A DNA stretch of 64,000 bases. It comes from Patescibacteria group bacterium (GTDB lineage: Bacteria; Patescibacteriota; Minisyncoccia; CAIUEV01; JAHKAQ01). A program made the position numbers and the translations under genes. This document shows, in pieces, positions 46,444 to 56,136 of the stretch; position 1 is the first letter of the stretch; every line of letters starts with the position of its first letter. Location of the stretch: the NCBI GenBank assembly GCA_034716235.1, contig JAYEHH010000032.1, positions 370 through 64,369 of the forward strand, written 5' to 3'. A model generated the notes under the pieces. It made no database searches. It was given only the letters and a program-made list of their open reading frames with translations, and had not been told where the DNA came from.

Positions 46444-46516
46444 CTTTATTAAATGGGTGGGAAGTGGTTTAATAAAAAGAGATAGAGAATAAGAATTATA
46501 TAATTAATTACTTATA
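46444..46516 (+). repeat. island direct repeat, full unit A (73 nt)
   Basis: ctttattaaatgggtgggaagtggtttaataaaaagagatagagaataagaattatataattaattacttata is ~80% identical by eye to 55963-56037. It ends 9 nt before the ATG at 46526. Confidence 0.75.
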
Positions 46517-46525
46517 TTTAAAATT

Positions 46526-48343
46526 ATGCCAAATTATTTCGTCAATCAAAGAAATATTAGTGCGTTACTTCAAAACATTAAGGACGAAGATATTGTAATC
46601 CCAGAAATTCAGAGACCTTTTGTTTGGGAGAGTAAAAAAGTTCGTAATCTTATGGACTCATTGTATCAGGAATTTCCAATAGGTTATATTATTACATGGA
46701 AAAATCCAAATATAAGACTAAAAAATGGAAGAATGAGCGAGGGAAAACAAGTTATAATAGATGGACAACAAAGAATTACCGCTTTAATGGCTGCGATCTT
46801 GGGACGAGAAATTATAGACAAAGAGTATCAAAAAAAGAGGATTCGGATTTCCTTTAATCCATTGAAAGAAAAGTTTGAAACATTAACTCCTGTTATTGAA
46901 AAAAATAGTGAATGGATAAGCGATATTTCAGAATTTTTTAAAACTAGAAATAATATTTTTAATTTTACTGCTAATTTTTGTAAAAAAAATAATTTTACCG
47001 AAAAACAAAAAATCAAGACTCAGCAAAGTCTAACAAAATTACTAAACATGGAGGATAAGTTTATTGGAATTATTGAGCTTGATGCAAATTTAGATATTGA
47101 TGATGTAACGGAAATATTTGTTAGAATTAATGATGCTGGGACTCCCCTTTCACAAGCAGATTTTGCAATGAGTAAAATTGCCTCATACGAACCAACATCA
47201 GACCATTTGTTTGGAGTGAATTTAAGAAAGTCTATTGATTATTTTGCTCATCTATCTCAAACACCACATTTTCTTGAAGATATTGGAAGAAACGATAAAG
47301 AGTTTAGCCGAACAGAATATTTGCTAAAAATGAAATGGGCCGGGAAGGAATTGGATAATATATATAATCCAAACTATAAGGATATTTTAAGAGTAAGTTT
47401 CATTAAGGAATTTAATAGAGGGAAAATTAGCGATCTTGTGAAGCTTTTATCTGGACAAAATTTTAAAACAAGAAATTATGATCAAAAAATACAAGAGAAA
47501 TCATTCTTGGCTTTAAAAAATGGAGTCCTTGACTTTATAAATGAAAATCATTTTAAGAAATTCCTTATTATTTTACAATCAGCTGGAATTATTGATTCAA
47601 AACTTATTAATTCACAGAGCGTTCTAAATTTTGCCTATATTGTCTATTTAAAACTTAGAAAAGATGGAATGGCAAATAATTTAATTGGGAAATATACAAA
47701 AAAATGGCTTGTTCTTTCAATTTTGACTGAAAGATATTCAGCCTCACCAGAATCTACGATGGATAAGGATATTAAAGATATTAATAAATATGGAATTAAA
47801 AAAGTTATTGCAAAGATTGAAGAGGCGGACATGTCATCAACTTATTGGAATATTGGACTTGTACAAAATTTAAACAGGGCGATAATTTCAAGCCCATTTT
47901 TAAGCCTCTTTTTTATAGCACAGATATGCTCTAAGGATAAAGCTTTATTCTCCGAATCGGTTTTAATCGATCAACTCGTTAGCATAAAAGGAGACGTCCA
48001 TCATATTTTCCCCAAAAATTATCTTCAAAAAGCAGGGTTTGGAATAAGTAAATATAATCAAATTGCAAATTTTGTTTATTTACAACAAGAAGTAAATATA
48101 ACAATAGGAGATAAACCACCAGGACAATATTTTAGCCGAGCATTGAATCAATGTGATAATAAAACTTTGGATAGTGGAAGTATTGGAGAAATTACAGACA
48201 AGAAAAAATTGATAAAAAATTTAGAAATAAATTCTATCCCAACTGATATTTTTGAAATGGATATTACTAATTATGATGAATTTTTAGAAAAAAGACGGAA
48301 ATTAATGGCAAAGAAAATTGAAAAGTTTTATAAAAGTTTATAG
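46526..48343 (+). CDS. GmrSD-type modification-dependent (type IV) restriction enzyme, DUF262 + DUF1524
   Basis: 605 aa. The N-terminal DUF262 has IPEIQRPFVW, EFPIGYII and IIDGQQRITAL. The C-terminal His-Me/HNH-like DUF1524 has GDVHHIFPKNYL...NFVYLQQEVNITIGDK. Confidence 0.8.
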   Translation: MPNYFVNQRNISALLQNIKDEDIVIPEIQRPFVWESKKVRNLMDSLYQEFPIGYIITWKNPNIRLKNGRMSEGKQVIIDGQQRITALMAAILGREIIDKEYQKKRIRISFNPLKEKFETLTPVIEKNSEWISDISEFFKTRNNIFNFTANFCKKNNFTEKQKIKTQQSLTKLLNMEDKFIGIIELDANLDIDDVTEIFVRINDAGTPLSQADFAMSKIASYEPTSDHLFGVNLRKSIDYFAHLSQTPHFLEDIGRNDKEFSRTEYLLKMKWAGKELDNIYNPNYKDILRVSFIKEFNRGKISDLVKLLSGQNFKTRNYDQKIQEKSFLALKNGVLDFINENHFKKFLIILQSAGIIDSKLINSQSVLNFAYIVYLKLRKDGMANNLIGKYTKKWLVLSILTERYSASPESTMDKDIKDINKYGIKKVIAKIEEADMSSTYWNIGLVQNLNRAIISSPFLSLFFIAQICSKDKALFSESVLIDQLVSIKGDVHHIFPKNYLQKAGFGISKYNQIANFVYLQQEVNITIGDKPPGQYFSRALNQCDNKTLDSGSIGEITDKKKLIKNLEINSIPTDIFEMDITNYDEFLEKRRKLMAKKIEKFYKSL

Positions 48344-49095: not shown

Positions 49096-52014
49096 ATGAG
49101 AGTTAATATCAAGGAAATCAGGAGAATAATTAAATCTGATGTTATTAAGCCTAGAATTGAAGAATATTTACAGAAAAGAAAAAGTGGAGACGAGCAGCAA
49201 TGGAACGAGGAATATAAATGGGATCCAAAAATATTGCCTGCAACACATAAGGAATTTATCAAGGAAAGAGACATTCTTAAAAAAATTGAAATTCTTCAAA
49301 AAAATAATCCAAACGAAGGATCCTTTGTGAGTTATATGGACTTGGACGATCTCAATAAATTTGCTAAGGAAAAAACAAAGCAAGCCACAAAGTTGATGGA
49401 AAACTTATTGAATGGAAAAAAGAATATTGCTAAACGCATTGATTATTTTAGGGATGAGACGAAAAAAGTGGATGAAAAAATTAAATTAGGAACACCCTTA
49501 TTTGGTTACATTATGGCGGTATTCAATTCCAGTAAATATCCAACTTATAAAAATTCAACCTTTATGGCTCTCAAAAAGCTCATTGGAAAAAGACAAGAAT
49601 GGAGTTCTATGAGTGTTGGCGAGAAATATCAAACATTTACTGACCTGTGCCATGAAATGGGCAAATTGCTGAAGCCAGAACTTGAAACTGTAAATATCAG
49701 AGGTATTGAGGTCAAGCCAGGAAGGACTGCTCTGGATGGTCAAGACTTTTTCTATATTCTTGAAGATCGTTATAATAGAGAGAGATATTTCCCCGAACTT
49801 GTTAAATTTCTTGAACAAGCCAAGGCAAGCAATCTTACAACAAAGCAATACCGAAAGGATTATATGAATTGTAAAGTGAGGATAAGTTTTGGAAAAGTAA
49901 GCTCTGCACAAACACCCTGGATTAGTTTTTTATCCGGTGACAATAAATTACAGAAGGGAATTTATCCAGTCTTTCTTTTTTATAAAAGTATAAATAAATT
50001 ATTTCTAGCATATGGTATAAGTGAAATAAGTGAACCCGAACAAATTTGGAACATTGTTGGAAAAGAAACAATTGAAGATTATTTTATTGAAAATTTCAAC
50101 TCGGAGCCAGAGAGATATGGCAGTTCTTATGTTTATAAAGTATACGATGTGAAAAACATTGATAATTTAAATCAAGAACAAATGGAAAATGACTTGAAAA
50201 ACATAATTAATGAATATAAAAAACAACTTGAAGAAACTCCAAAAATTCAATACTGGACAATTTCTCCGGGGGAAGATGCAAAGCACTGGGAGGAGTTCTA
50301 TCAAAAAGGGATCATTGGAGTCGGCTGGGATAAAACAAAAGATCTCTTACAATATAAAAATAAAAAAGAAATTCAAAAGGTTGCGAAAAACTTATTTGGA
50401 TTAAAAACTAATGCCAGCAATACTGCCCAAGCTTGTTTGGATTTTTCTAGAACAATGAGAATTGGGGATATTTTAATTGTCAAAAAGGGAATTCATGAAT
50501 TGGTCGGCTATGGAAAGGTAACTTCAGATTATATTTATGATGCAAGGAGGAAGACATATAAACACATACGAAATGTGATGTGGATTAAAAAGGGAAATTG
50601 GAAGATAGATAAAGAGATTATTCATCCTGCATTAAAAACTTTAACTAACATAACTCCGTATGAAGGTTATGCCCAAGAATTATTGGGCATAATGGACGAA
50701 AGTAATATTGATGGAAAAAATTACTGGTGGATTAATGCAAATCCAAAAATTTGGAATTTAACAGAGGCGGAAGTCGGTTCCAAACAAATATATACAAGCC
50801 ATAATGAGGCCAAGAATCCCAGAAGAATTTATAGTTATTTTAAAGAGGTTAAGCCGGGCGACATTATGTTTGGATATATAACAAGTCCTGACAAACAAAT
50901 TACTTCAATATGCAAAATAACCAAAGGGTTATATGAGAACAAAGAGGGGGAAGTGATTGAATTTGAAAAAACTGAGACTTTACAAAATCCAATTTTGTGG
51001 AATGAATTGAAAAATGAAGAAAGTTTGAAAAATTGCGAACCAATTAAGAACAATCAAGGAAGTTTGTTTAAAATAAGCAAAGAAGAATATGAAACCATTA
51101 GATATTTGATTGATGAGAAAAATATTTTCACGAAAGAAAAAATTGAAAAATATATAAAAAAGGATGCTCTAGACAAATTATTTATTTCAGAAAATGAATT
51201 TGATAATATAGCCCAAAATATTGAAAGAAACAAAAATATCATTCTGCAAGGCCCTCCCGGAGTTGGCAAAACTTTTCTTGCAAAAAGGTTGGCTTATTAT
51301 TTGATTGGATACAAAGACGTAAACAAGGTACAATCTATCCAATTTCATCAATCATATTCATATGAAGATTTCATGCAAGGTTACAGGCCCAATGAAAAAG
51401 GAAAATTTGATCTTGTTAATGGAATATTTTTCAGATTTTGTCAGAAAGCTAAAAATGATCCAAACAATAAGTATTTCTTCTTGATAGATGAAATAAATAG
51501 AGGAAATCTGAGCAAAATTTTTGGTGAATTAATGATGCTTATTGAAAAAGATAAACGGGGTAAAGATTTTGCTATACCTTTAACATATTCCCAAGATGAC
51601 AGAGAAACATTTTATGTGCCAGAAAATGTTCATTTGATTGGGACTATGAACACAGCTGATAAATCACTTGCGATGGTAGACTATGCTTTGCGAAGAAGAT
51701 TTAATTTTATTTTTCTGAAACCAAAATTTAATAACAGCTTTAGTTCATTCCTAGAAAATATGGGAGTTAAAAAGATTATTATTAAAGCGATAGTTGAAAA
51801 AATAAGCAAACTAAATGAGATGATAATTAATGATGATAATAATCTTGGAAAAGGATATCAAATTGGTCATAGTTTTTTCTGTCCTCAGAGAAAAAGTAAA
51901 TATGACGAAGAATGGTTTAAGAATATTGTCAAATACGAAATTGAACCATTGCTCGAGGAGTATTGGTTTGATAGTGAGAAAAAATTTAATGAAGCGAAGA
52001 ATTTATTAAACTGA
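49096..52014 (+). CDS. mcrB: McrB-family AAA+ GTPase with extended N-terminal sensor region (DUF3578/MrcB_N-like + PUA-like + EVE-like)
   Basis: 972 aa. The AAA+ core spans aa ~700-900 (ILQGPPGVGKTF, FFLIDEINRGNLSKIFGELMMLIE, LIGTMNTADKSLAMVDYALRRRF). aa ~255-310 (KVRISFGKVSSAQTPWISFLSGDNKLQKGIYPVFLFY) resembles DUF3578. aa ~384-505 (YWTISPGE..W..F...GIIGVGW...MRIGDILIVKKG..LVGYGKV) and aa ~541-675 (YWWINANPKIW...VKPGDIMFGYITSP...QGSLFKISKEEY) look like EVE/PUA-type barrels. Confidence 0.8.
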   Translation: MRVNIKEIRRIIKSDVIKPRIEEYLQKRKSGDEQQWNEEYKWDPKILPATHKEFIKERDILKKIEILQKNNPNEGSFVSYMDLDDLNKFAKEKTKQATKLMENLLNGKKNIAKRIDYFRDETKKVDEKIKLGTPLFGYIMAVFNSSKYPTYKNSTFMALKKLIGKRQEWSSMSVGEKYQTFTDLCHEMGKLLKPELETVNIRGIEVKPGRTALDGQDFFYILEDRYNRERYFPELVKFLEQAKASNLTTKQYRKDYMNCKVRISFGKVSSAQTPWISFLSGDNKLQKGIYPVFLFYKSINKLFLAYGISEISEPEQIWNIVGKETIEDYFIENFNSEPERYGSSYVYKVYDVKNIDNLNQEQMENDLKNIINEYKKQLEETPKIQYWTISPGEDAKHWEEFYQKGIIGVGWDKTKDLLQYKNKKEIQKVAKNLFGLKTNASNTAQACLDFSRTMRIGDILIVKKGIHELVGYGKVTSDYIYDARRKTYKHIRNVMWIKKGNWKIDKEIIHPALKTLTNITPYEGYAQELLGIMDESNIDGKNYWWINANPKIWNLTEAEVGSKQIYTSHNEAKNPRRIYSYFKEVKPGDIMFGYITSPDKQITSICKITKGLYENKEGEVIEFEKTETLQNPILWNELKNEESLKNCEPIKNNQGSLFKISKEEYETIRYLIDEKNIFTKEKIEKYIKKDALDKLFISENEFDNIAQNIERNKNIILQGPPGVGKTFLAKRLAYYLIGYKDVNKVQSIQFHQSYSYEDFMQGYRPNEKGKFDLVNGIFFRFCQKAKNDPNNKYFFLIDEINRGNLSKIFGELMMLIEKDKRGKDFAIPLTYSQDDRETFYVPENVHLIGTMNTADKSLAMVDYALRRRFNFIFLKPKFNNSFSSFLENMGVKKIIIKAIVEKISKLNEMIINDDNNLGKGYQIGHSFFCPQRKSKYDEEWFKNIVKYEIEPLLEEYWFDSEKKFNEAKNLLN

Positions 52015-52019
52015 TTTTT

Positions 52020-53057
52020 ATGGAGATACCTATAATAAATATATATTACCTACTTTGTTATGCTTGGGATAAACTTGAAGAAAAAGATGTTGTTAACGTA
52101 AAAGAAGAAGATCACACTAAGTTACTTGATCTTTTTGCAAAGATATTAATTAACGGAATGAATCATCTAATCAGGAAAGGATTGGACAGAAATTACATTG
52201 ATATCAAAGAAGATTCAAAGAGAATTAAGGGAAAGATTAATTTCAATGAAACACTGAAAAGGAACTTGTTGGTACGATGTGAAATTAGTTGCGAATTCGA
52301 CGATTTTAGTTACAACATTCTTCACAACAGAATTATTAAAACAGTGATTGGAGGATTAGTTAGAAATGATGAGGTGGATCAGGAGCTGAGGGACGAATTG
52401 AATAAAATCTATCGATTATTGAAAGAGATTGATGAGATAAGGCTTTCCTCAAAAATATTTAATGCTGTAAAATTAAACAGAAATAATTACTTTTATGATT
52501 TTCTGATCAAGGTATGTAGGCTGATATATGAAAATTATTTAATCACGGAAGAAACGGGCAAGGGGAAATTTAGAGATTTTATAAGAGACGAAGTAAAAAT
52601 GAGAATGCTCTTCGAAGATTTTGTTAGGAATTTTTATAGAAAAGAACAAAACGAATTTTCTGTAACAAGGGAATTGATTGCATGGAATGTTAAGGCTGAG
52701 AATGATGAAGATATGAGTTATATGCCGAGAATGGAAACCGATATATCGCTAAAATCAAAAAGTAAAAAAATAATAGTTGATACAAAATATTATAAAGAGG
52801 CCATTAAGGGTCAATATAAGAATAAAGAAAAGTTAATATCCAATAATTTATATCAAATGTTTGCCTACATAAATAATATAGAAAACAAAGGAGGTCTAAA
52901 TAAAAAATGTACTGGAATATTACTTTACCCAACAGTTAAAAAAGATTTGGATTTAAAATATAAAATACCAAATCATAACTTACAAATTAAAACAATAAAT
53001 CTAAATCAAGAATGGAAAAAAATTCATAAAGACTTATTAAGTGTAATTATGACTTGA
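52020..53057 (+). CDS. mcrC: McrC-family nuclease subunit
   Basis: 345 aa, starting 5 nt after mcrB. The N-terminal YLLCYAWDKLEE and the C-terminal PD-(D/E)xK-like METDISL...IIVDTKYYK are typical of McrC. Confidence 0.8.
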   Translation: MEIPIINIYYLLCYAWDKLEEKDVVNVKEEDHTKLLDLFAKILINGMNHLIRKGLDRNYIDIKEDSKRIKGKINFNETLKRNLLVRCEISCEFDDFSYNILHNRIIKTVIGGLVRNDEVDQELRDELNKIYRLLKEIDEIRLSSKIFNAVKLNRNNYFYDFLIKVCRLIYENYLITEETGKGKFRDFIRDEVKMRMLFEDFVRNFYRKEQNEFSVTRELIAWNVKAENDEDMSYMPRMETDISLKSKSKKIIVDTKYYKEAIKGQYKNKEKLISNNLYQMFAYINNIENKGGLNKKCTGILLYPTVKKDLDLKYKIPNHNLQIKTINLNQEWKKIHKDLLSVIMT

Positions 53058-53131: not shown

Positions 53132-54349
53132 ATGCAACAATTTTCTCATTCAAAATTACAAACCTATGAAAGATGTCCCCTGCAATATAAGCTCCAATAC
53201 CTCACCAATCTAAAGCCGGAGCAGGAAGAGACAATAGAAGCCTTTGTGGGTAGCCGGGTCCATGAGACTCTGGAACTTCTTTATCGTGATCTACTGCGAA
53301 CAAAACTAAATTCTTTAGCTGATCTTTTAAAGTTCTATGATAAAATTTGGAGAGTAAACTGGAGCAATGACATAGTTATCAATAATAAAGAATTTAAAAA
53401 GAAACATTACTTTGATCTTGGAAAAAAATGTATTAAAAATTATTATGAAAAATATAGCCCTTTTGATCAGGATCAAACAATTGGAATTGAGAAGAGGATT
53501 AATTTACAATGGGGAGACATTGGAATAGTGGGATACATTGACCGTTTAGCTAGAGACAGCCAGGGTATTTATTCTATCCATGATTATAAAACGGGTGCCA
53601 TCATGGAACAGAAGTACGCAGATCAAGATCGTCAGCTAGCCTTGTATTCAATTGCCGTTAAGGAAAACTTTAGAGAGGCCAAAGAGGTAAGGTTAATTTG
53701 GCATTTTGTAGCTTATGGCGAAGATGTTATCTCGAAACGGACAAATAAGGAATTGGCTAAGCTAAAAAATGAAATGCTGTCCCTTATTGAAGAAATTAAT
53801 CTTGCAGAAAAAGAAGATAATTTTCCAGCCAAAGAAACTAAATGTGAATGGTGCGGATATTGGCAGTATTGCCCAAAGAAAAAGCATTTATTCAAAACAG
53901 AAAAACTTCCAAAAAATAAATACCTACAAGATAGTGGAGTAAAACTAGCAAAAAAGTATATTAATTTATCACAACAAAGAACTGTCATAAACAAACGAGC
54001 TAAAACTAAGGGGGAAATAATTAAGCAAGAAATGCTAAAGATTCAAGAAGCTATCCTAAAATATACCCAGAAACATAAAATAGATGTCTTGGCGGGAGAA
54101 AAAATGCTTGTAGCTATTAATAAGAGTAAGAACTATACCTTCCCTACAAAAACTACTGACATTGAAAAATACACTGAATTGGAAAATTTATTGAAAAAAA
54201 GTAAGTACTGGAACGGTGTATCTTCCGTCAATGCCCAAAAAGTTAGTCAATTATTGGAAGATGATGGGATTGACAGTAGATTAAAGCAGAAAATTATTGC
54301 CCTTGCTCCACTTGAAGAATCTACTAACTTATCAATCAGAAAAAAGTAA
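53132..54349 (+). CDS. Cas4/AddB-like PD-(D/E)XK nuclease with Fe-S Cys cluster and ~150-aa C-terminal extension
   Basis: 405 aa. Motifs: FSHSKLQTYERCPLQYKLQY (Cys15), GYIDRLARD (D137), IHDYKTG (D151-x-K153), QLALY (QxxxY) and CEWCGYWQYC (C238, C241, C247). Confidence 0.75.
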   Translation: MQQFSHSKLQTYERCPLQYKLQYLTNLKPEQEETIEAFVGSRVHETLELLYRDLLRTKLNSLADLLKFYDKIWRVNWSNDIVINNKEFKKKHYFDLGKKCIKNYYEKYSPFDQDQTIGIEKRINLQWGDIGIVGYIDRLARDSQGIYSIHDYKTGAIMEQKYADQDRQLALYSIAVKENFREAKEVRLIWHFVAYGEDVISKRTNKELAKLKNEMLSLIEEINLAEKEDNFPAKETKCEWCGYWQYCPKKKHLFKTEKLPKNKYLQDSGVKLAKKYINLSQQRTVINKRAKTKGEIIKQEMLKIQEAILKYTQKHKIDVLAGEKMLVAINKSKNYTFPTKTTDIEKYTELENLLKKSKYWNGVSSVNAQKVSQLLEDDGIDSRLKQKIIALAPLEESTNLSIRKK

Positions 54350-54910
54350 ATGGAGCTTCTAGAGAAAACCATCAAGCATATAGAAAAAAAGAAAAGGGAT
54401 AATTCTAATAAAAAAGAGCTATTGGCAAACAACAGACATCCTAAATCTGCCCATTATTATAAAAAGGAATGGTCATTTATTGAGTTTGTACCAGCTAGAG
54501 AAAATATTACCTATCAGTTACAGTATTTAGAGTATATGACCAATTTATACAATGACTACCAAATGTATTTAACGATTGAATCTTTACATTGCAAGAACAT
54601 GATGATTACCATTGCCTCAATAATGGAATGTGCCCTCTATGACCTCTTGTATCAGTTAGCCAGAAAAAGGTCAGATATTGGTTTTGATGAAAGAGAAGAT
54701 TTTTTAGCAATGATTGATTTAGGGTTTCGGGGAGGTTTACTTAATGAACAAATGAAAAATTTGCTACATGAGCTTCGGAAAGTTAGAAATTTTGTGCATA
54801 TTTCTAATTTGGAGCATAAAGAATACGAAGCTTATGATATTGAGCAAGTAAACAACTATATTATACTTTTAGATAATTTTAAGGATAGAGTTAGGGAGAA
54901 GATTAAATGA
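54350..54910 (+). CDS. hypothetical helical protein, possible HEPN-like (LLHELRKVRNFVH)
   Basis: 186 aa. Its ATG abuts the TAA of the nuclease gene (aagTAAATGgag). R143-x6-H150 fits the Rx4-6H HEPN motif. The family call is tentative. Confidence 0.5.
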   Translation: MELLEKTIKHIEKKKRDNSNKKELLANNRHPKSAHYYKKEWSFIEFVPARENITYQLQYLEYMTNLYNDYQMYLTIESLHCKNMMITIASIMECALYDLLYQLARKRSDIGFDEREDFLAMIDLGFRGGLLNEQMKNLLHELRKVRNFVHISNLEHKEYEAYDIEQVNNYIILLDNFKDRVREKIK

Positions 54911-54950
54911 AAATAATTAGGGTTATACTCCCCTGCTGCATTCTTTCTTA

Positions 54951-54977
54951 AAAGAATTACGTAATTAATTACTTACC
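54951..54977 (+). repeat. island repeat, right half-unit D (27 nt) with palindrome AATTACGTAATT
   Basis: aaagaattacgtaattaattacttacc is identical to 56011-56037. It lies 55 nt upstream of the ATG at 55032. Confidence 0.7.
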
Positions 54978-55031
54978 AGTAACCCCACTTCCAAAAACAA
55001 TTCTAAAATAACATAGATTAATAGAATCTGA

Positions 55032-55922
55032 ATGCCTCCAAAACCTAAAAAAATAGATGTTGATGTTAATGATTTTTTCAGAAGAATTGTTAGATTAAAA
55101 AAGAAAAAGAAATTTGCAAATTTCTTAAAATTTATTAAACGAGTACCAAAACAATCCCCTTTAAATGACTCTCTCGTATTCATTCAAAATTGTAATTGTT
55201 TTTATTATGCAACAGCTAAGCAATGGAAGAATAAATTTGGAAGAAAAGTAAAAGATGATGCGCAACCATTGATCGTATTAGTTCCATTTGGTCCCGTTAT
55301 GTTCGTATATGATATTAAGGATACCAAGGGAAAATCTCTAGATAAAAAAAATTTGTTTTGGTGGAAAGAAAAAGAAGGATATTTTCACGAAAGTATTTAT
55401 TTGAACACAGCCAATAACTGTAAGAATGTTGGGATAGATTATCGTATTGGTAAAAAAGAACAGTATATATTTAAAGAGGGTCTACAGACTTTCGGATATG
55501 CTGGAAAAAATATAAATAATAACTTACGTAAAATTGAACTACATCCTAAATATCAAAATGGAATCAATATAAAAGAAACTTATGGAGTATTATGCCATGA
55601 GTTGGCTCATCATTTGCTTGGGCATTTGGGAGAAATAAAAATTGAGATACCAGTGCAGATGAGTTTATTTTCATCTAAGGTCAACGTCCGTCACAAAAAA
55701 ATAGCTCCGAGTGGTAGAGAGTCTATTGATGATAATATTAAAGAGCTTGAAGCCGAATTAACTGCTTGGATAGTATTTTCCTGTTGGGGTATGGAAAAAA
55801 ACTCAGAAGCATACATGGCAAATTGGCTGATAGATAGCAATGATGCAAAAGAAATAAACTATCCCTTAGTTTTTAAGGTAGCTGGAACGATTAAGCGAAT
55901 GGCGCTCGGTAAAATTGCGTAA
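55032..55922 (+). CDS. HExxH zinc metallopeptidase-like protein, ArdC-like or ImmA/IrrE-like (tentative)
   Basis: 296 aa. CHELAHHLLGH is a metallopeptidase motif. The N-terminal YYATAKQWKNKFGRKVKDDAQPLIVLVP resembles the ArdC_N/DUF1738 ssDNA-binding pattern (TfkQw..lGr.VkKGeK). Confidence 0.5.
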   Translation: MPPKPKKIDVDVNDFFRRIVRLKKKKKFANFLKFIKRVPKQSPLNDSLVFIQNCNCFYYATAKQWKNKFGRKVKDDAQPLIVLVPFGPVMFVYDIKDTKGKSLDKKNLFWWKEKEGYFHESIYLNTANNCKNVGIDYRIGKKEQYIFKEGLQTFGYAGKNINNNLRKIELHPKYQNGINIKETYGVLCHELAHHLLGHLGEIKIEIPVQMSLFSSKVNVRHKKIAPSGRESIDDNIKELEAELTAWIVFSCWGMEKNSEAYMANWLIDSNDAKEINYPLVFKVAGTIKRMALGKIA

Positions 55923-55962: not shown

Positions 55963-56037
55963 CTTGATTAAATGGGTAGAAAGTGGCTTAATGGGGAGGG
56001 AAATAGAGAAAAAGAATTACGTAATTAATTACTTACC
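55963..56037 (+). repeat. island direct repeat, full unit C (75 nt)
   Basis: The unit is cttgattaaatgggtagaaagtggcttaatggggagggaaatagagaaaaagaattacgtaattaattacttacc. See units A, B and D. Confidence 0.75.
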
Positions 56038-56136
56038 ACCACTAAAACAATAATCTATTCAAAATAATAATTCAAAATAATAATTCAAAATACCTACAGG
56101 ACTGGAAAAATATAGTTGCTAATGCTAATCTAAAAC

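Follow-up and report, generated by a model that had tools for sequence, protein, structure and literature searches.

The question raised by positions 53,132 to 54,910 of the window analysed here, a stretch of 64,000 nucleotides from the Patescibacteria group bacterium assembly GCA_034716235.1 (contig JAYEHH010000032.1), is whether two abutting genes, one specifying a Cas4-like iron-sulphur nuclease and the other a small HEPN-family protein, constitute a two-gene defence module, as the original prediction had proposed. The answer that we favour, and to which we give roughly an even chance, is that the pair represents an accessory, co-translated cassette of a type IV restriction island gained by horizontal transfer, in which a DNA-end exonuclease is combined with a HEPN ribonuclease effector. 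The direct basis for this answer is formed by what the sequences and models show of domains, folds and conserved residues, together with the order and junction of the genes and their setting in the island, and from that setting we infer a defence function of the pair. Gene 1 (53132-54349, plus strand) encodes a 405 amino acid (aa) Fe-S PD-(D/E)XK nuclease of the Cas4/AddB/AdnAB type with a conserved C-terminal domain, while gene 2 (54350-54910, plus strand) encodes a 186 aa protein of a HEPN family for which no sequence model exists, and carries a family-specific N-terminal extension of approximately 45 aa. Both reading frames were found where they had been placed and they are contiguous, as the TAA stop codon of gene 1 (54347-54349) and the ATG start codon of gene 2 (54350-54352) can be read in the sequence as a TAAATG junction (54347-54352, plus strand). 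The 74 nucleotides reported to separate the pair from McrC were likewise recovered, with McrC ending at 53057. An identical copy of gene 2 is present at NCBI, in a metagenome-assembled genome (MAG) of the Patescibacteria group.

Gene 1 was assigned to the PD-(D/E)XK nucleases by its domain, as the PDDEXK_1 profile (PF12705) matches residues 3-248 over its full length of 1-247 with an E value of 1.7e-32 and 113.8 bits against a cut-off of 22. The nuclease domain (residues 3-249; 53138-53878, plus strand) had been described as containing the complete PD-(D/E)XK set of D137, D151-x-K153 and QxxxY together with four cysteines, and this description held in full: C15, D137, D151, K153, Q168, Y172, C238, C241 and C247 do not vary among the 34 gene-1 homologues that were aligned (A2), whose identities go down to 37%. 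The cysteines follow the 4Fe-4S-type pattern C...CxxCx5C, for which cluster binding is predicted, and the AlphaFold model (predicted local distance difference test, pLDDT, 89.7) adopts a RecB-like nuclease fold. The Lys-rich C-terminal stretch of about 150 aa, which had been regarded as an extension, is real and conserved, but is better described as an integral domain of the gene-1 family; it covers residues ~255-405 (53894-54346, plus strand) and consists of a helix of 47 residues (269-315) and, after it, an alpha/beta sub-domain; within the C-terminal domain G269, L272, G322, P338 and L350 are invariant throughout A2. A structure search with this domain gave no convincing match in the PDB, and Pfam DUF7376 matches the C-terminus of one gene-1 homologue. 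The family as a whole is broad, with 2047 homologues of about 400 aa in Patescibacteria, archaea, Chlamydiae and Elusimicrobia, and the literature searched for it (COG2887 or 'RecB family exonuclease') yielded nothing specific. PHROG exonuclease families match gene 1 with an E value of 2.8e-30, and in Foldseek comparisons with viral models phage RecB-like and DUF2800 exonucleases of ~390-400 aa align with it over the full length, albeit with a high root-mean-square deviation and at 14-17% identity; judged from these models, gene 1 and the phage RecB-like exonucleases of that size appear to share a two-domain layout. An identity as a CRISPR Cas4 protein was also considered for gene 1 and rejected, the TIGR00372 match scoring 45.8 bits against a cut-off of 65 and cas neighbours being absent.

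For gene 2 the HEPN assignment was borne out by the predicted structure. The AlphaFold model, built with 34 homologues (pLDDT 84.8; predicted template modelling score, pTM, 0.85), is all helical and forms the four-helix up-down bundle of the HEPN fold, its likenesses including YutE (1ylm; score 10.9), 7ae2 (10.6) and HI0074 (1jog; 10.1), with LsoA, AbiA, RnlA and Csm6 at 7-8. The canonical HEPN motif is Rx4-6H, with a polar residue after the arginine and a second acidic residue (PMC3710099), and it was this motif that had been claimed for gene 2. The relevant segment, LLHELRKVRNFVH (residues 138-150), contains H140, R143, K144, R146, N147 and H150, all of which are invariant in the 34 close homologues, and R143-x6-H150 (nucleotides 54776-54799) formally fits Rx4-6H, although in the narrow family only. 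In the wider family, represented by an alignment of 47 sequences with a mean identity of 19% (A3), N52, Y55, E93, R146 and H150 are conserved at 90% or more, whereas R143 is not, being kept in the close subfamily alone; similarly, E77 is invariant among the close homologues, while E93 is the upstream acidic residue that is retained at 90% or more in A3. Because R146, H150 and E93 are conserved in A3 and R143 is not, the family motif was taken to be R146-N-x-x-H150 (RNxxH, with Rx3H spacing) plus the upstream glutamate, and R146-N147-F-V-H150 (54785-54799, plus strand) is the predicted catalytic motif. The HEPN fold of the original prediction was retained, while its catalytic candidate R143 was replaced by R146. 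A shortened motif is not without precedent, as the second HEPN domain of the CnuE proteins in CoCoNuT systems classed as Type III-A is reported to have RxH (PMC11090510).

Existing sequence models do not capture this family. No significant match to gene 2 was obtained from Pfam, NCBIfam, PADLOC or PHROG, nor from PDB sequences, searched with gene 2 both as a single sequence and as a profile. A sub-threshold Pfam DUF4145 match is seen in 6 of the 34 members (best E value 0.044), DUF4145 being the sole Pfam HEPN family to recur. A Caud_tail_N match (E value 9e-4; 20.2 bits against a cut-off of 27; 4 of the 34 members) was taken as chance, since it falls short of the cut-off, gene 2 is modelled as an all-helical bundle of HEPN type, and no viral members of the family were found. 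When 1.84 billion representative proteins were searched with a profile, the family was seen to comprise 438 clusters (50% identity) at an E value of 1e-3 or below, almost all of them stand-alone proteins of 170-240 aa, and in ten scanned members, including the five longest (301-484 aa), no Pfam model covers the HEPN core. The N-terminal 45 aa of gene 2 are conserved whichever gene adjoins. A distant member, P0308 (301 aa), bears a C-terminal cold-shock domain (Pfam CSD, E value 1.1e-11), P0317 (293 aa) aligns with it across this CSD-bearing region, and PADLOC CSD_V matches two A3 members with E values down to 3.3e-11; such a fusion is consistent with binding of RNA or single-stranded DNA.

The distribution of the two genes across related genomes, which rests on about 25 informative loci, established that they belong together in one clade and that the link is not mutual. 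Wherever sufficient upstream sequence is available, all gene-2 relatives with 65% identity or more follow a gene-1 relative of 56-74% identity, and seven sequence-distinct pairs were found on at least 12 contigs (the window/L010, the P0002 group of L043 and L088-L092, L011, L012, L013, L093 and L095/L096). The flanks of these pairs differ: McrC in the window, a GmrSD_N gene downstream of the type I HsdR in L095, a downstream GmrSD_N gene in L011, an HNH gene within an island that also holds OLD and DEAD-box genes in L013, and a NucS-like nuclease within a prophage-like element in L093, with further kinds of neighbour at the remaining loci. The junction is TAAATG in L011, L012, L043, L088-L093 and L095/96 and an overlap in L013, and TAAATG, TAATATG or an 11-nucleotide overlap accounts for all relatives that hold both genes. 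As a stop-start junction is kept in every one of these relatives, it is more than a chance arrangement, and the translational coupling that had been proposed is upheld across at least seven sequence-distinct lineages with different flanks. One MAG holds two diverged copies of the pair (L011 and L013), and the presence of the pair is patchy. A scan of metagenomes with gene 1 as a single protein returned 11 loci, most of which were ended by contig edges.

Beyond this clade, gene-2 relatives of 35-51% identity at 28 genome loci have no detectable gene 1 within 6 kb, and they are often tightly spaced to another neighbour, with gaps of -17 to +13 nucleotides. These neighbours include DNA-targeting defence genes, which speak for the favoured reading, namely GmrSD_N genes (5 loci), NucS_C/YhcG_C nucleases (2), OLD-like AAA_15 genes (2), DUF4268, DUF2779 and Fic genes, a 1413-aa SF1 helicase and a 1070-aa N6_Mtase protein resembling a type IIG methylase, and also DUF763 genes (2). 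Most of the genomes with gene-2 relatives belong to Patescibacteria; a few are Acidobacteriota and one is a gammaproteobacterial MAG. At four loci in Patescibacteria MAGs, Colwellbacteria among them, a family of acidic 311-347-aa proteins without a Pfam match was observed translationally coupled upstream of gene-2 relatives (L014 5045-6001, L016 4937-5935, L020 4971-6014 and L022 5082-6017), with a DUF763 gene following the HEPN gene in L020, and NucS_C-type nucleases precede the relatives in L002 and L021.

The setting of the pair agrees with the defence island that had been proposed for it, in that GmrSD-like, McrB and McrC genes are present and the GC content is low. The island extends over approximately 10 kb (46.4-56.0 kb), from a GmrSD-like DUF262 gene and a small minus-strand open reading frame (ORF) through McrB and McrC to the pair and the gene for a 296-aa HExxH protein. 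Its DNA has 26-33% GC, as compared to 34-38% in the flanks, where a TsaD-like gene and an aminoacyl-tRNA-synthetase-like gene were identified by reading ORF translations. The GmrSD-like type IV restriction enzyme (46526-48343, plus strand) was assigned by PF03235 (E value 4.8e-33), PADLOC HEC-05 (1.1e-29) and PD-T4-2_A (2e-5). McrB (49096-52014, plus strand; 972 aa, with EVE, MrcB_N and AAA_5) and McrC (52020-53057, plus strand; 345 aa) were assigned by Pfam matches; in its sequence McrB comprises two or three predicted specificity modules in a stack, namely MrcB_N (239-376), a region matching the PADLOC PDC-S02 candidate models (385-533) and EVE (542-669), followed by the AAA_5 GTPase. No terminator-like site lies between McrBC and the pair.

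The island is further marked by an intergenic repeat of 75-95 nucleotides, with the consensus CTTGATTAAATGGGTAGAAAGTGGCTTAATGGGG...AAAAGAATTACGTAATTAATTACTTACCA and the palindrome AATTACGTAATT within it, of which four copies exist, only inside the island when the whole window is considered (0 matches expected in shuffled sequence). Two copies are full (46444-46517 and 55963-56038), one has an internal deletion (48928-~49005) and one is a half copy (54950-54978, plus strand), located 40 nucleotides after the stop codon of gene 2. The repeats lie at the island's boundaries and divide it into three segments, the first with the GmrSD-like gene and the small ORF, the second with McrB, McrC, gene 1 and gene 2, and the third with the HExxH gene. 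As McrB, McrC, gene 1 and gene 2 all lie inside one repeat-bounded segment, they are probably part of the same transcription unit. The repeat might function as an att-like site or another site of recombination, or else as a common promoter or operator; a reading as an RNA antitoxin or regulatory RNA was dropped after Rfam returned nothing at an E value of 0.1 or below. Promoter and terminator scans told little in this AT-rich DNA, with promoter-like sites at background level and no terminators, and no tRNA genes were found. The 296-aa ORF (55032-55922, plus strand), directly after the pair, contains HELAHHLLGH (HExxH), matches SprT-like PF10263 (7.8e-4) and phrog_7245 'anti-restriction protein' (2.7e-3) weakly and has no PDB sequence match; on this sequence basis it may be an ArdC-like metalloprotease, which would hint at a mobile-element origin.

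A number of observations weigh against the reading as an accessory cassette of the restriction island, and they are best considered together with the explanations that they favour. No PADLOC system matches the pair, and the Rx3H spacing of gene 2 is shorter than the canonical Rx4-6H. Lacking gene 2, gene-1 relatives of 55-65% identity were found in L008 (with a GmrSD_N-SLFN gene upstream), L085 (NERD downstream), L086 and L087 (NucS-like nuclease upstream). In L045 (6227-6470) and L046 (2891-3120) an intact gene-1 relative is followed by a remnant of gene 2, in which about 59 N-terminal aa are joined to the last ~20 aa, residues ~60-165 with the HEPN core and motif having been deleted; the L046 remnant carries a stop codon, and a close homologue of the GmrSD-like gene of the window follows the remnant in L045. 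Gene 1 thus does not need gene 2, as relatives of 55-65% identity lack it or keep a remnant without the HEPN core. A 42%-identical gene-1 homologue was found in a non-defence context, after pstSCAB-phoU (L006), and some distant gene-2 relatives adjoin housekeeping-looking genes, an ABC transporter or a membrane protein, which suggests that the HEPN gene is autonomous. Finally, nothing that would act as an antitoxin or regulator of the HEPN protein could be recognised.

It is necessary to consider whether two independent single-gene functions, an abortive-infection-type HEPN protein (ApeA, HepS, AbiV or DARNA-like) with its own sensor and an unrelated exonuclease, travel together without being functionally coupled. 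The occurrence of each family without the other, the near-universal stand-alone organisation of the 438 HEPN clusters, the retention of the N-terminal 45 aa regardless of neighbour and the decay of the HEPN gene beside an intact gene 1 in L045/L046 all speak for this explanation, but it does not readily account for a junction type and gene order that were kept over 56-74% gene-1 identity in at least seven lineages with changing flanks, for the lack of any observed gene-2 relative with 65% identity or more that is not immediately preceded by gene 1, or for the tight coupling to an upstream gene (gaps of -17 to +3 nucleotides) that is also frequent among distant relatives. We regard it as rather unlikely. 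The original proposal is partly upheld: the two genes recur together in at least seven lineages, whereas an exclusive partnership of the two families has to be given up. The results that had been named as refuting it were not obtained, given the HEPN fold, the co-occurrence, and the absence of polymerase, SSB and annealase families from the contexts with precomputed Pfam annotation. The breadth of the gene-1 family and its position after pst-phoU in L006 might alternatively indicate a housekeeping DNA-repair exonuclease of a reduced genome, next to an unrelated regulatory or nucleotide-binding protein of HEPN fold without RNase activity, and some HEPN domains are indeed non-catalytic (PMC3710099). 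The location of the pair among restriction genes in a low-GC, repeat-bounded island, the variable flanks of its relatives, the conservation of R146, H150 and E93 as expected of a catalytic HEPN protein, and the two diverged copies in one MAG and patchy presence, which are not those of a single-copy syntenic universal gene, make this very unlikely.

The third explanation, which had already been raised as an alternative in the original prediction, is that gene 1 is a recombination or replication exonuclease, or a superinfection-exclusion gene, carried by a prophage or integrative element, of which the window would hold a decayed remnant. Three related loci, L086, L087 and L093, have a prophage-like layout in which gene 1 lies between a large serine recombinase gene and terminase genes, preceded by a NucS-like nuclease and, in L093, followed by gene 2, so that all three genes stand together there. 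On the opposite strand are the gene for the large terminase (in L086 matching phrog_38 at 1.1e-80), one resembling a small terminase (in L086 phrog_309 at 1.8e-6) and DNA methylase genes (ParB-methylase). The protein just upstream of the gene-1 relatives (L086 4916-5992, L087 4795-5877 and L093 2125-3243; 358-372 aa) has no Pfam or PHROG match; the L086 protein and its 75%-identical homologue in L087 contain a NucS-like PD-(D/E)XK motif (GPIDALALDKDGDIYIVETK in L086), the comparison covering these two proteins. The shared layout of these three loci indicates that the pair cassette can be prophage cargo, and the PHROG and full-length Foldseek matches of gene 1 to phage exonucleases, the direct repeats bounding the island and the possible ArdC-like gene at 55032-55922 point in the same direction. 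However, no SSB (single-stranded DNA-binding protein), annealase or polymerase family was found in those contexts whose genes carry precomputed Pfam annotation, and the L093 genes are integrase-proximal, a position typical of accessory or defence cargo. Full-length viral relatives of gene 1 amount to two, at 34-35% identity, in 2.9 million viral contigs, matches in cultured phages reach only 24-28% and are mostly confined to the nuclease domain, and searches of viral contigs, cultured phages and plasmids gave no relative of gene 2. Nor does the window contain an integrase, terminase or tRNA near the island. A prophage-like element was seen around three relatives (L086, L087 and L093), the recombination neighbourhood expected of a phage nuclease was not seen in the annotated contexts, and we consider a decayed element to be unlikely as an explanation of the pair.

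A fourth possibility is a toxin-antitoxin module in which gene 2 is a HepT-like HEPN toxin neutralised by the product of the upstream gene. No MNT nucleotidyltransferase was found among the scanned neighbours in the window and the tested related loci, the upstream partner is a 405-aa nuclease with an intact active site whose identity changes completely between relatives, and the one Pfam HepT-like_2 match to the gene-2 family has an E value of only 0.15; we deem this reading very unlikely.

Under the favoured reading, that of an accessory cassette of a type IV restriction island, gene 1 would be a stand-alone Cas4/AdnAB-type Fe-S exonuclease acting on DNA ends, which would resect or degrade the linear DNA that McrBC or GmrSD-type enzymes leave after cleaving modified phage DNA. 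Gene 2 would dimerise and act, via R146, H150 and E93, as a predicted metal-independent RNase, thereby serving as a growth-arresting second-line effector that is silent until infection and arrests translation once the DNA-level defence has been bypassed. We infer here an RNase activity, a toxicity and an activating signal, as well as a possible contact between the gene 1 and gene 2 proteins. As the upstream partner of the HEPN gene changes freely, inhibition by a specific protein contact seems less likely than an autonomous switch, for which the conserved N-terminal 45 aa are a candidate. A variant, argued by analogy and held by us to be distinctly improbable, is that the pair forms a self-contained system in which gene 1 digests invading or restriction-cut DNA and so generates the signal, its products (single-stranded DNA or short 5'-phosphorylated deoxyoligonucleotides) switching on the Rx3H HEPN RNase, in the manner of ApeA and DARNA but with the trigger built in; it would explain why the HEPN family so often adjoins unrelated DNases such as GmrSD, NucS-like, PDDEXK_1, DUF2779 and helicase-nucleases.

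If the pair is defensive, a compact DNase-plus-RNase module would be added to the sparse defence repertoire known from Patescibacteria (candidate phyla radiation, CPR), and a HEPN family would be defined that counts 438 or more clusters (50% identity), has unusual RNxxH spacing and is missed by Pfam, NCBIfam, PADLOC and PHROG models. It would also offer a tractable case for how small HEPN effectors are restrained beside many different restriction nucleases, a matter that has largely been one of comparative-genomic inference since 2013. If it is not defensive, the pair amounts to a common mobile-element exonuclease accompanied by a hitch-hiking HEPN gene. It is unlikely to surprise a specialist in defence systems.

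Among known systems, phage RecB-like, DUF2800 and 'Cas4 family' exonucleases resemble gene 1 over its full length, with high deviation, in Foldseek (TIN4, 1.6e-21; KellEzio, 9.3e-17; PTXU04 DUF2800, 7.4e-10). These phage enzymes are usually located in replication or recombination modules, whereas no examined gene-1 relative lies in such a module, and sequence identity is low. From the Cas4, AddB and AdnAB domains and ACE1 (Argonaute-associated, PDB 9iab) gene 1 differs in having neither cas or pAgo neighbours nor a fused helicase, and in possessing the additional 150-aa C-terminal domain. Gene 2 is distinguished from the HepT toxins (8xdj, 5yep, 7ae2 and 1ylm) by 8-14% identity, the absence of an MNT partner, a motif that is not Rx4H and the extra N-terminal 45 aa.

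PD-T4-2 is an experimentally validated two-gene anti-T4 system of E. coli (PMC9519451) and has been counted among the HEPN systems (bioRxiv 10.64898/2026.02.22.705581). It approaches the island in that PD-T4-2_B matches one of the 47 wider gene-2 relatives (7.1e-5) and PD-T4-2_A the GmrSD-like protein of the window, and five gene-2 relatives adjoin GmrSD_N genes, but the similarity is remote, gene 2 itself has no PD-T4-2_B match at an E value of 1 or below, its direct partner is PDDEXK_1 rather than DUF262, and the PD-T4-2_A-matching gene lies 6 kb upstream of gene 2 and is not adjacent. ApeA and DARNA are HEPN RNases triggered by products or intermediates of DNA metabolism, 5'-phosphorylated deoxydinucleotides and single-stranded DNA, respectively (bioRxiv 10.64898/2026.01.26.701840 and 10.64898/2026.02.22.705581), and may be seen as an earlier example of how a DNase could be linked with a HEPN protein. 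The likeness extends to the logic only, as they are large proteins with dedicated sensor domains, while in the 186 aa of gene 2 neither a ligand pocket nor a DNA-binding domain was identified.

The wider theme within which the pair falls was set out in 2013, when HEPN domains were reported to associate with restriction endonuclease, HNH, ParB and PLD DNases and with restriction-modification helicases, a multi-pronged, second-line model after PrrC was proposed by Anantharaman et al., at least 16 HEPN clades were found to adjoin restriction DNases, and the DUF4145 HEPN clade was reported in operons with McrB/C (PMC3710099). Like the HEPN genes linked to restriction-modification systems, of which PrrC-EcoprrI is an example, the gene-2 family is found within or beside restriction loci and associates with genes for DNases or helicases, the one exception, which contains a methylase, being L017_U. 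Unlike PrrC and RloC, gene 2 has no fused ABC/Rad50-like ATPase, consists of a HEPN domain and the 45-aa extension, has an Rx3H motif and is partnered by a Cas4-type exonuclease. In the literature searched, a HEPN gene paired with such an exonuclease was not found described, and the view that the pair does not belong to a named system stands, given the PADLOC result. Taken as a whole, the pair combines known parts in a way that has no name yet but stays inside an established theme, and adds to them a HEPN family that lacks a model and has an atypical motif spacing.

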